A DNA stretch of 64,000 bases, from contig OY969474.1 in assembly GCA_963700145.1 (NCBI GenBank), positions 416,001 to 480,000 on the forward strand, in the 5' to 3' direction. Source of the stretch: an uncultured Acidobacteriota bacterium (GTDB lineage Bacteria > Acidobacteriota > Thermoanaerobaculia > Multivoradales > UBA5704). Under the pieces are notes generated by a model, which worked only from the letters and a program-made list of their open reading frames with translations, ran no database searches and was not told the origin of the DNA. Below, one piece after another: positions 29,601 through 32,600 of the stretch (position 1 is the first letter of the stretch; every line of letters starts with the position of its first letter). Position numbers and translations under genes: made by a program.

Positions 29601-32600
29601 GTTCGCGGCCGAGGCGGCCGCGACGCTCTCCCCGCGTTGCGCGCATTCCTCGCCGGCCGGCTGCCCGAGTACATGGTGCCGTCGGCCTTCGTCCTCCTGC
29701 CCGGCCTCCCCCTGAGCCCCAACGGCAAGGTGGACCGCAAGGCGCTGCCGGAGCCGGAGGCGGAGCGGACCGCCGGCGAGCCGGTGGCGCCGCGGACGGC
29801 GCTCGAGCGCCGGCTCGCCGAGCTGTTTCGGGAGGCGCTGCGCGCCGAGACGATCGGCGTGGACGACGACTTCTTCGCCGTCGGCGGCAACTCGATCCGC
29901 GGGGCCGGCCTCATCAACCGCTTGCAGGAGCGGCTGGGAGAGATCGTCCACGTCGTGGCGATCTTCGACGCCCCGACCGTGGCGCGCCTCGCGACCTTCC
30001 TCGAGGAGAACTACTCCGCCGCGGTGGCGCGGTGGACCGGCGAGACCGGCCGCGCGGCCGCCGGGGCGACGGCGGTCACGCGAGTCGATGCCGGGCAGCT
30101 GGCGCGCCTGCGCGAGCTGATCGAGCGCGGGCCGCGGAACGTCGCGGCCGTCCCGCGCCCGGAGCGGCGGAACCGTCCCGCCCTGTTCGTCCTGTCGCCG
30201 CCGCGCTCGGGCTCGACGCTCCTGCGCGTGATGCTGGGCGGGCACCCGCGCCTGTTCGCGCCGCCCGAGCTGGAGCTCCTCTCCTTCGCCACGCTGGCGG
30301 AGCGCCGGGCCGCCTTTCCGGACCGCGACGCCTTTTGGCTCGAAGGGCTGATCCGTGCCGTCATGGAGGCGCGCGGGCTCGGTCCCGAGTCGGCCCGGCG
30401 GCTCGTCGAAGAGCACGAGCGCGAGGGTTGGACGACGCAGCGCTTCTACGGCCAGCTGCAGGAGTGGCTCGGTGGGCGCCTCCTCGTCGACAAGACCCCG
30501 TCCTATTCGTTCCACCCAGCGATCCTGGCGCGCGCCGAGGAGCAGTTCGAGGGCGCGCTCTACCTCCACCTGACGCGCCACCCCTGCGGCACCATCCGCT
30601 CCTTCGAGGAGGCGCGGATCGATCAGATCTTCTTCCCCCGGCACCCGTTCGCGCTACGCGAGCTGGCCGAGCTGGCCTGGCTGACGAGCCACCTCAACGT
30701 CCTGGCCTTCCTCGAGACGGTGCCGCCGGAGCGGCAGCTGCGAGTGCAGTTCGAGGAGCTGCTGCGCGAGCCGCGCGGGACGATGGAGGCGGTCGCCGCC
30801 TTCGCCGGCGTGCCGTTCGATCCGGCCATGCTCGAGCCGTACGCGGAGCGCAGCGCGCGGATGACCGACGGCCTCCACCGCGAGTCGCGGATGCTGGGCG
30901 ACGTCAAGTTCCACCAGCACCGCGGCATCGACGAGGCCGTGGCGCAGCGCTGGCGGGAGAGCGTGGACGAGGAGGCGCTGGCCGGCACGACGCGCGACGT
31001 CGCCGCGGTGCTCGGCTACGACCGCGCCGGCGGGGGCGCCGCGGTCGCCATCGAGCGCACCGGCTGGCGGACGGGGACGCCGCTGCCGCTCTCCTTCCAG
31101 CAGGAGCGGCTCTGGGTCCTCGACCAGCTCCAGCCGGGTCTGCCGACCTACAACATCCCGGTGGCGCTGCGGGTGCTCGGCGCTCTCGACGTCGCGGCCT
31201 TCCGCGCCGCGCTCGCCGAGATCGTGCGCCGGCACGCCGTGCTCCGCACCACGTTCGTCGAGCGGGACGGCAGCCCCTACCAGGTGGTCGCGGCGCCGTC
31301 CCTCGCGGGCGCCGCGGCGCACGTCGTCGACCTGTTCGGTCTGCCGGCCGCGTCGCGCGAGAGCGAGGCGCGGCGCCTCGTCGCGTTGGGAGCGCGGCGG
31401 CCGTTCGATCTCGCCCCGGGGCCGCTCCTTCGCGCCGACCTCCTGCGGCTCGACGCGGCGGAGCACCTCTTCGCGCTCACCGTCCACCACGTCGTCTTCG
31501 ACGGTTGGTCGATGACGCTCTTCCTGCACGAGCTGCTGACGCTGTACGGCGCCTTCGCCGACGGACGCCCCTCGCCGCTGCCGGAGCTGCCCATCCAGTA
31601 CCCCGACTACGCCTCCTGGCAGCGCCATTGGCTCAGCGGCGCGGTGCTCGAGGCGCAGGTGGCCCACTGGCGCGAGCGGCTGGCGGGGGCCCCCACGGTG
31701 CTGGAGCTGCCGACCGACCGGCTGCGGCCCGCCGTCCAGGGCTATCGCGGCGCCCACGTGTCCGCACAGCTGCCCGCGGAGCTGCGGGAAGCGCTGGCAA
31801 CGCGCGCCGGGGTCGAGGGGGTGACGCTGTTCATGGTCCTGCTCGCCGGCCTCGACGTGCTCCTGCACCGGCACAGCGGGCAGGCGGACCTGCTCGTCGG
31901 CTCACCGGTCGCCAACCGCACCCGCCTGGCGACCGAGGGGCTGATCGGGTTCTTCGTCAACACCCTCGTCTTCCGCGCCGAGCTCGCGGGCGACCCGCCG
32001 GTCCGCGAGCTCCTCGGGCGCGTGCGCGACGGCGCCCTCGCCGCCTACGCCCACCAGGAGCTGCCGTTCGAGAAGCTGGTCGAGGCGCTGCAGCCGGTGC
32101 GCGACCTCAGCCGCTCGCCGCTCTTCCAGGTGATGTTCCAGTTCCAGAACCTGTCGCGCGAGCTGCCGCGGGTGGGGGAGCTGCGCCTTTCGTCCCTCGC
32201 GGCACACAGCGGCACGGCGAAGTTCGACCTGACCCTCACCGCGGCCGAGACCGCCGCCGGGCTGCGCCTGTTCCTCGAGTACGACCGGGACCTCTTCGAC
32301 GCCACCACGGCGGAGCGGCTGCTGGGGCACTACCGGACGGTGCTGGCGGCCGTGGCGGCCGACGGGAGCCGACCGTTGCCGGAGCTGCCGTGGCTCAGCC
32401 CGCCCGAGCGCCACCAACTCCTCGCGGAGTGGAACGACGCGGCGCGTGGCGAGGGCAGAGCGATCTCGGTGCCGAACCTGATCGCGGAGCAGGCGCGGCG
32501 GCGGCCGGAAGCGGTGGCGGTTGCCTGCGGCGAGGGGCGGCTGAGCTATGCCGAGCTGGAGCGGCACGCCGCGGCGCTGGCGGCGCGGCTGCGGCGGCTC

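Follow-up and report, generated by a model that had tools for sequence, protein, structure and literature searches.

The sulfotransferase-bearing assembly line

The stretch of DNA described here, referred to as the window, comprises 64,000 nucleotides of an uncultured, soil-type Acidobacteriota bacterium (GenBank assembly GCA_963700145.1, contig OY969474.1, positions 416,001 to 480,000), whose genome is a single contig of 5.46 Mb. The G+C content is 72-77% across most of the window. The forward strand, on which all cluster genes mentioned below are located, carries one biosynthetic gene cluster of the combined nonribosomal peptide synthetase (NRPS) and polyketide synthase (PKS) type (5167-41183). 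According to Pfam, the giant gene at its end (about 26680-41183) encodes condensation (C), adenylation (A), carrier (T), sulfotransferase (ST), ketosynthase (KS), acyltransferase (AT), acyl carrier protein (ACP) and thioesterase (TE) domains in the order C-A-T-ST-C-A-T-C-A-T-KS-AT-ACP-TE. The subject of this report is the ST domain, which is embedded in the first module of this gene, the eighth of the whole line, and which probably sulfates the serine residue that this module is predicted to load.

The serine module opens with a C domain (26839-28188; Pfam Condensation, residues 64-513 of the reading frame 26650-29715) and an A domain core (28252-29313; Pfam AMP-binding, residues 535-888), and continues with a T domain (29823-30029) in which the phosphopantetheine-bearing serine (codon 29892-29894) lies within the motif GGNSI. 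The ST domain (30045-31085), identified by Pfam, by searches of Protein Data Bank (PDB) sequences and by a structure model, is followed by a further C domain (31080-32414, with the motif HHVVFDGWS), by the domains A-T-C-A-T (32415-37500 by Pfam and pocket codes), and by the Pfam-defined end module KS-AT-ACP-TE, which lacks a ketoreductase (KR) domain (37512-41183). Pfam finds PP-binding four times in the encoded protein.

Identity and conserved residues of the ST domain

The region 30045-31085 is a full-length ST domain of the family that comprises the ST domains of CurM, from the curacin A PKS (PDB 4gbm), and of OLS, the olefin synthase of Synechococcus PCC 7002 (4gox), with which it shares the fold over its full length. 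Pfam Sulfotransfer_3 matches over its entire profile (1-216 of 216, at 30177-30825) with an E value of 1.7e-25 and 91 bits against a cut-off of 27. In a phmmer search of PDB sequences, residues 35-326 of the query matched nearly the whole chains of 4gox (9.8e-61) and 4gbm (1.1e-60), the next matches being tyrosylprotein sulfotransferases at 1e-5. Foldseek, run with an AlphaFold2 model of the domain (pLDDT 70, pTM 0.75), likewise returned 4gbm (E 3e-21, target-normalized template modelling (TM) score 0.89) and 4gox (E 2.8e-20, 0.90). Among the more general resources, NCBIfam holds no model for the domain, its only match being NoeE at 34.7 bits (cut-off 500), and the ESM Atlas yielded only generic Sulfotransfer_3 clusters.

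The diagnostic motifs of the carrier, the ST and the following C domain all share one reading frame, namely FFAVGGNSI at 29871 (GGNSI at 29883), LSPPRSGSTLL at 30192, DKTPSY at 30489, TRHPCG at 30573 and LSFQQERLWV at 31089. The motifs that bind the sulfate donor 3'-phosphoadenosine-5'-phosphosulfate (PAPS), which comprise the loop for its 5'-phosphosulfate and the Arg and Ser of its 3'-phosphate site, are all present (PRSGSTLL, DKTP and RHP...S); they are invariant in one alignment of the domain and conserved over the 159 ST domains compared below; by alignment, the 5'-phosphosulfate-binding loop is located at 30192-30224, DKTPSY at 30489-30506 and RHP at 30576-30584. The PPEL motif aligns with PPEL of both solved chains, and its glutamate (30267-30269) is E in 158 of the 159 domains. 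This residue is reportedly the catalytic base of CurM/OLS-type ST domains (McCarthy et al. 2012). The initial annotation, made from the letters of the window, had proposed a sulfotransferase with the PAPS loop, DKTPSY and RHP...S motifs between an atypical T domain and a normal C domain, and this is borne out. One difference from both solved chains is found two residues after the glutamate, where they carry histidine (ELH) and the window carries glutamate (ELE, 30273-30275). In the 155 of the 159 domains for which this position is listed, histidine is absent and E (133), D (11), Q (6), Y (4) and A (1) occur instead.

The sole long internal stretch of low model confidence, residues 269-296, belongs to the most conserved sequence of the domain and includes RMLGDVKF. 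The ST of CurM is said to possess a mobile active-site flap, to which we presume this stretch corresponds.

The surrounding serine module

In the upstream A domain, the nine residues of the pocket code are DVWHISLVD, a serine-type pocket by known specificity codes. Serine specificity had been proposed previously and stands, although the earlier reading of the pocket had included, in its "HF", a residue that is not part of the code. The nearest solved A domains are those of Txo2 (3e-168), Txo1 (5.4e-150) and EntF (2.1e-113), all presumably from serine-activating modules. The second serine-type module of the same protein (DVWHVSLVD) carries no ST domain.

The C domain behind the ST is ordinary, as had also been anticipated. 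In an alignment with six other C domains of the cluster its HHxxxDG motif is intact and the histidine motif invariant, and it is 57, 54, 50, 53, 50 and 48% identical to these six, so that a specialized dehydrating C domain is rejected for the window by both the histidine motif and the overall identity. A CurM-like TE can be dismissed as well. The terminal TE is located about 3,200 residues downstream of the ST, behind KS-AT-ACP, and is of the ordinary NRPS type (best PDB matches 7crn, 2.2e-24, and 4zxh, 3.1e-19); the same holds for the TE in the nearest neighbour of the window on the ST tree, P0048, which matches generic NRPS TEs, with no curacin TE among its 45 matches.

Distribution and architectural context

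The domain is widespread. Of the 1.84 billion representative proteins covered by a full HMMER scan, 5,231 matched with E <= 1e-3, of which 1,175 reached E <= 1e-30. The best 150 matches were annotated with hidden Markov models built from the window's own domains, which gave 159 ST domains, that of the window included. All of the best 150 relatives carry a T-ST pair; a T domain directly precedes 147 of the 159 ST domains, and the other 12 stand at the start of their mostly partial proteins. Downstream, a C domain follows in 80 cases, a TE in 49, the protein end in 28 and a second T domain in two, and several relatives possess two ST domains. Precomputed Pfam lists agree with this annotation for the proteins common to both. 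The arrangements T-ST-C, a search for which had been suggested earlier, and T-ST-TE are therefore abundant, and the rarity implied by the initial annotation does not hold; embedded carrier-ST-C modules, moreover, are already described for glycerate loading (PMC10143770; PMC13122637; PMC8609519; PMC6520454).

With RMLGDVKF as search pattern, at least 589 places with the ST domain were found in species-representative genomes; the 76 loci retained all come from records of metagenome-assembled genomes (MAGs). The hosts are almost all uncultured Acidobacteriota, by record names Thermoanaerobaculia, Holophagales, Blastocatellia, Pyrinomonadaceae and other Acidobacteriota MAGs, together with some Chloroflexota (Herpetosiphonaceae and Chloroflexota MAGs). 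Among 41 genomes related to that of the window, its own included, 24 encode the domain, as do 20 of the 24 of its family, with up to ten copies per related genome and one in the window's own. In three genomes of the same genus the ST is 93, 86 and 73% identical and lies within long open frames.

The atypical carrier proved to be a family trait, since GGHS, present in 103 of the 137 other T domains of the same proteins, is found in only 5 of the 147 T domains before an ST, where GGDS (55), GGNS (53), GGSS (17) and GGTS (11) prevail; the ST and this special carrier thus travel as a unit. The residue loaded upstream also follows a pattern. With pocket codes assigned to amino acids by known specificities rather than by a prediction tool, the 107 classified upstream A domains comprise 24 Thr-type, 19 Ser-type (that of the window included) and 13 Tyr-type domains, ten with the code DIWExTADD, one Gly-type and 40 others. 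The occurrence of the same ST behind Ser-, Thr- and Tyr-type modules fits an on-line O-sulfation of the loaded residue.

The relationship between substrate and ST can also be followed on a FastTree phylogeny of the 159 domains, in which support is of the local Shimodaira-Hasegawa-like kind and many forks stay open. Domains with the same upstream substrate class group together on this tree: the class requires 35 changes against 58.7 for shuffled labels, a value that none of 200 shuffles matched, which suggests that the ST co-evolves with the loaded residue. The Tyr-linked domains are scattered (11 changes for 13 rows). The downstream context of C or TE changes 29 times and both occur within single starred clades; from this mixing it appears that no partner TE is needed for the reaction.

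Three further observations concern unusual modules and codes. Two proteins, P0009 and P0042, contain a tandem A-T-ST-T-ST, that is, two carrier-ST pairs behind one A domain, and their ST domains sit on long branches. For P0237 the Pfam list gives AMP-binding, KR, PP-binding and Sulfotransfer_3, which looks like an A-KR-T-ST module; such a module would suggest an alpha-hydroxy acid as the sulfated substrate. The code DIWExTADD, shared by the ten ST-linked A domains mentioned above, is absent from the 74 of 123 A domain codes without an ST that are listed.

Proposed sulfation in cis and comparison with known systems

In-line ST domains are known in two settings, the off-loading of CurM and OLS and the glycerate loading modules of cyanobacterial peptides, and the window resembles each of them in part. 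With CurM and OLS it shares, besides family and fold, the PAPS motifs and the aligned glutamate, the position directly behind a carrier, and an acceptor hydroxyl expected beta to the thioester. In contrast to these PKS modules (KR-ACP-ST-TE), its ST is part of an NRPS module A-T-ST-C and has no dedicated TE partner, a C domain following where the off-loading tridomain ACP-ST-TE ends the line; the histidine after the catalytic glutamate is replaced; and the sulfate, which is eliminated in CurM and OLS, is probably kept.

The second setting is closer in architecture. Loading modules with the order O-methyltransferase (OMT)-FkbH-peptidyl carrier protein (PCP)-ST-C are described for suomilide (SuoB), banyaside/suomilide-like compounds (BslA), dysinosin (DysB), varlaxin (AerB) and oscillapeptin/cyanopeptolin (OciA) (PMC8609519; PMC13122637; PMC6520454; PMC10143770; PMC2533009). 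They are assigned to 2-O-methyl-3-sulfoglyceric acid, in which the beta-hydroxyl sulfate is kept (PMC8609519; PMC13122637; PMC10143770; PMC6520454). By these assignments, which are themselves bioinformatic, the modules sulfate a 3-hydroxy acid on its carrier, and the sulfate persists in the known product; the window has the same carrier-ST-C order inside an NRPS. As the hydroxy analogue of serine, glycerate is sulfated on a hydroxyl in the same position. Unlike these modules, in which FkbH loads glycerate at the start of the line, the window possesses an elongation module for an A-loaded amino acid, with C and a Ser-type A domain upstream of the carrier. Full-text searches of the openly accessible literature, supplements excluded, yielded no description of an ST domain behind an amino-acid A-T pair, whether in modules for elongation or for termination.

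Two more distant systems are instructive. SulN of the sulfazecin pathway performs, as shown by reconstitution, a PAPS-dependent sulfonation of a peptide on an NRPS carrier, but it is a stand-alone protein that acts in trans and N-sulfonates diaminopropionate, the sulfamate then joining a TE-catalysed beta-lactam closure (PMC11298585). The tyrosylprotein sulfotransferases TPST1/2, which come after CurM and OLS in nearness among solved structures (E about 1e-7, TM scores 0.4-0.6), sulfate peptide hydroxyls with retention of the sulfate; they differ in being distant relatives, specific for tyrosine, with ribosomal protein substrates.

On this basis we favour, by a modest degree, the view that the ST sulfates the carrier-bound serine in cis with PAPS as donor and that the sulfate stays in the product. 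The Ser-type A domain would load serine onto the GGNSI carrier, whose phosphopantetheine arm would bring a seryl- or peptidyl-seryl-thioester to the ST, and sulfate would be transferred from PAPS to the serine beta-hydroxyl with the conserved glutamate of PPEL acting as base. The ordinary downstream C domain would then take over the O-sulfoseryl peptide, whose sulfate ester would be kept in the final product. The identity and fold of the domain, its conserved motifs, the architecture with its recurrence and the association with hydroxyl-bearing residues are observed directly, whereas the acceptor atom, the timing relative to the upstream condensation (before or after) and the retention are inferred. 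PAPS can be supplied by the organism, since an APS (adenosine 5'-phosphosulfate) kinase (195.8 bits) is encoded in the same genome about 4 Mb from the cluster; no PAPS-supply genes linked to the cluster were found within the window.

Of the two fates proposed initially, O-sulfoserine or a leaving group for dehydroalanine formation or cyclization, the domain context and the analogies lean towards retained O-sulfoserine over dehydroalanine. Tyr modules carry the same ST, and a tyrosine sulfate cannot leave by beta-elimination. Retention is further favoured because the ST is independent of the domain that follows it, because the C domain after it in the window is ordinary and the TE in P0048 generic, and because the cyanobacterial glycerate precedent keeps its sulfate. 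Moreover, ST-bearing homologs without a TE are considered likely to yield sulfated metabolites in a published account (PMC11730487).

Several points weigh against retention or against serine as target. In chemical terms, the beta position relative to a thioester predisposes a sulfate to elimination, and to our knowledge no nonribosomal peptide with O-sulfoserine or O-sulfothreonine is known; none with sulfated Ser or Thr was found in the literature searched. In CurM and OLS, the nearest relatives of solved structure, the sulfate serves as a leaving group (PMC5655351; PMC11730487). Furthermore, no hydroxyl amino acid can be assigned to 40 of the 107 upstream codes, and another one is Gly-type; the control for the enrichment of Ser, Thr and Tyr covers 74 of the 123 codes from A domains that no T-ST follows, among them 3 Ser-, 7 Thr- and 3 Tyr-type. 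Finally, the copy in the window contains an apparent frameshift, which is considered below.

Alternative explanations

The strongest competitor, which we nevertheless regard as unlikely, is that sulfation serves activation, the O-sulfoseryl thioester undergoing beta-elimination to dehydroalanine or an intramolecular displacement to a ring; at the T-ST-TE ends of relatives, hydrolysis and decarboxylative elimination would then give a C-terminal enamide. The serine hydroxyl is placed relative to the thioester like the beta-hydroxyl of CurM and OLS, 43 of the 107 classified upstream A domains are of the type for Ser or Thr, from which dehydroalanine and dehydrobutyrine derive, and a TE follows 49 of the 159 ST domains, as in CurM. 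The nearest solved homologs, at about 1e-60, are moreover activating STs whose sulfate is eliminated (PMC5655351; PMC11730487), and other activating members of the superfamily, retinol dehydratase and LGS1, appear by title among the structure matches. Against activation, the same ST is found in 13 Tyr-type modules that are intermixed on the tree, C and TE contexts swap freely inside ST clades, the C domain behind the ST is ordinary, the single ST-TE example examined (P0048) has a TE of generic NRPS type, and the histidine of CurM and OLS beside the catalytic glutamate is never kept among the domains listed. In addition, the glycerate PCP-ST-C precedent carries its beta-sulfate through a C domain (PMC8609519; PMC13122637). 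If the ST of Ser and Thr modules were nonetheless a leaving-group installer, an outcome to which we assign a low probability, it would represent a new NRPS route to mid-line dehydroalanine and dehydrobutyrine and to C-terminal enamides at A(Ser/Thr)-T-ST-TE ends, widespread in Acidobacteriota and parallel to the phosphorylation or glutamylation that precedes elimination in lanthipeptides.

Less probable again is that the gene is broken in this genome, so that T-ST and the downstream domains would not be made within the assembly line. The initial annotation had overlooked an apparent frameshift of one nucleotide (29626-29637), within or next to the four consecutive C of 29630-29633, which was located by frames and by ortholog alignment. 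The A domain is readable only in two frames, its core in the frame of 25072-29715 and its C-terminal end, together with T, ST and the rest, in that of 27369-41183; compared with the closest ortholog, G004, whose ST is the 93% identical one, the window is one base short exactly at the C run. However, A-T-ST is encoded in a single frame in all three same-genus orthologs (G004, G003 and G002). The lesion is the only one in about 14.5 kb that are otherwise open, and its setting, a C run at 75% G+C in a one-contig genome, would be typical of an assembly indel, which we consider more likely than a real lesion. No public read run was found to contain this stretch, the best share of words being 0.10, and no RNA data set containing it was listed; the four runs that were mapped look like A-domain amplicons of other organisms and gave zero cover at 29612-29635. 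In three small metagenome runs, thousands of short contigs matched only the conserved A8 and A10 motif regions (29440-29520 and 29700-29760), as in A-domain amplicon libraries rather than genomes. In any case, a real frameshift bears on the copy in the window only and not on the function of the ST.

That the ST targets not the loaded serine but a different hydroxyl or an amine within the nascent chain, or else a free-standing small molecule, is very improbable: the unassigned upstream codes, the Gly-type one and one that is Val-like would allow it, as would SulN, which N-sulfonates a carrier-bound tripeptide (PMC11298585), but a T domain stands directly before the ST wherever the protein does not begin with it, STs with the same upstream class group together on their tree, and the second serine module of the same protein has no ST.

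The remaining cluster, its predicted product and its surroundings

The earlier part of the line is encoded, by Pfam and domain reading, by a gene for A-T-C-A-T (5167-10302) and a gene with three C-A-T modules (10299-20045), followed by two genes that each encode, by Pfam and pocket reading, a Gly-type C-A-T module (19984-23337 and 23369-26683). In the giant gene, the ST-bearing module is followed by a Gly-type module and by the Ser-type module without an ST. Read together, and with the second gene represented by its first two A domains, the pocket codes tentatively suggest X-Leu-X-Val-X-Gly-Gly-Ser(ST)-Gly-Ser by known specificity codes. The product would thus comprise about ten residues and end in ...Gly-Gly-Ser(SO3)-Gly-Ser plus one malonate unit. 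Because KS-AT-ACP without a KR follows a Ser-type module, the malonate extension would make the last intermediate a gamma-amino-beta-keto thioester, which the generic TE could hydrolyse or cyclize; a methyl ketone after hydrolysis and an N-acyl tetramate-type ring are possible end products. No tailoring genes other than the ST were found within the 64-kb window.

Both flanks of the cluster encode housekeeping or unrelated functions. Upstream these are argininosuccinate synthase, a semialdehyde dehydrogenase and a helix-turn-helix regulator, and on the downstream side TerC, RNase D, MurJ, an RlmL-like methyltransferase, a molybdopterin oxidoreductase and a TonB-dependent receptor. Directly after the NRPS, an open reading frame of 579 amino acids (41345-43084, forward strand) has a twin-arginine-like signal, RRQFLGG, and faint matches to PAP2 (14 bits) and TAT_signal (13.5 bits), both under the cut-off; by eye, motifs resembling PAP2 and vanadium haloperoxidases are seen toward its C-terminus. 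Further downstream, an island of lower G+C content (0.56 at 58-60 kb) contains an open reading frame (58231-59889, forward strand) in which an RVT_1 reverse transcriptase is fused to a Trypsin_2 peptidase, with a PIN-domain gene nearby (60964-61491, reverse strand); this island may be a defence-type or mobile element.

Significance

The family is large, with 1,175 representative clusters at E <= 1e-30 and its at least 589 places in species-representative genomes, and it is of real interest for natural-product enzymology. A 2026 review describes sulfates of Ser and Thr as rare in peptides and leaves nonribosomal peptides unmentioned, with 0 occurrences of the term (PMC13514629). Tools for product prediction would miss the additional 80 Da, and a portable T-ST unit could be used for the engineering of sulfated peptides. 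With its one-contig genome and its compact cluster free of other tailoring genes, the window would lend itself well to a clean test, provided that the frameshift is clarified first. If the ST does sulfate the loaded residue in cis and the sulfate is retained, many assembly lines would write sulfate esters of Ser, Thr and Tyr at programmed positions of their peptides.

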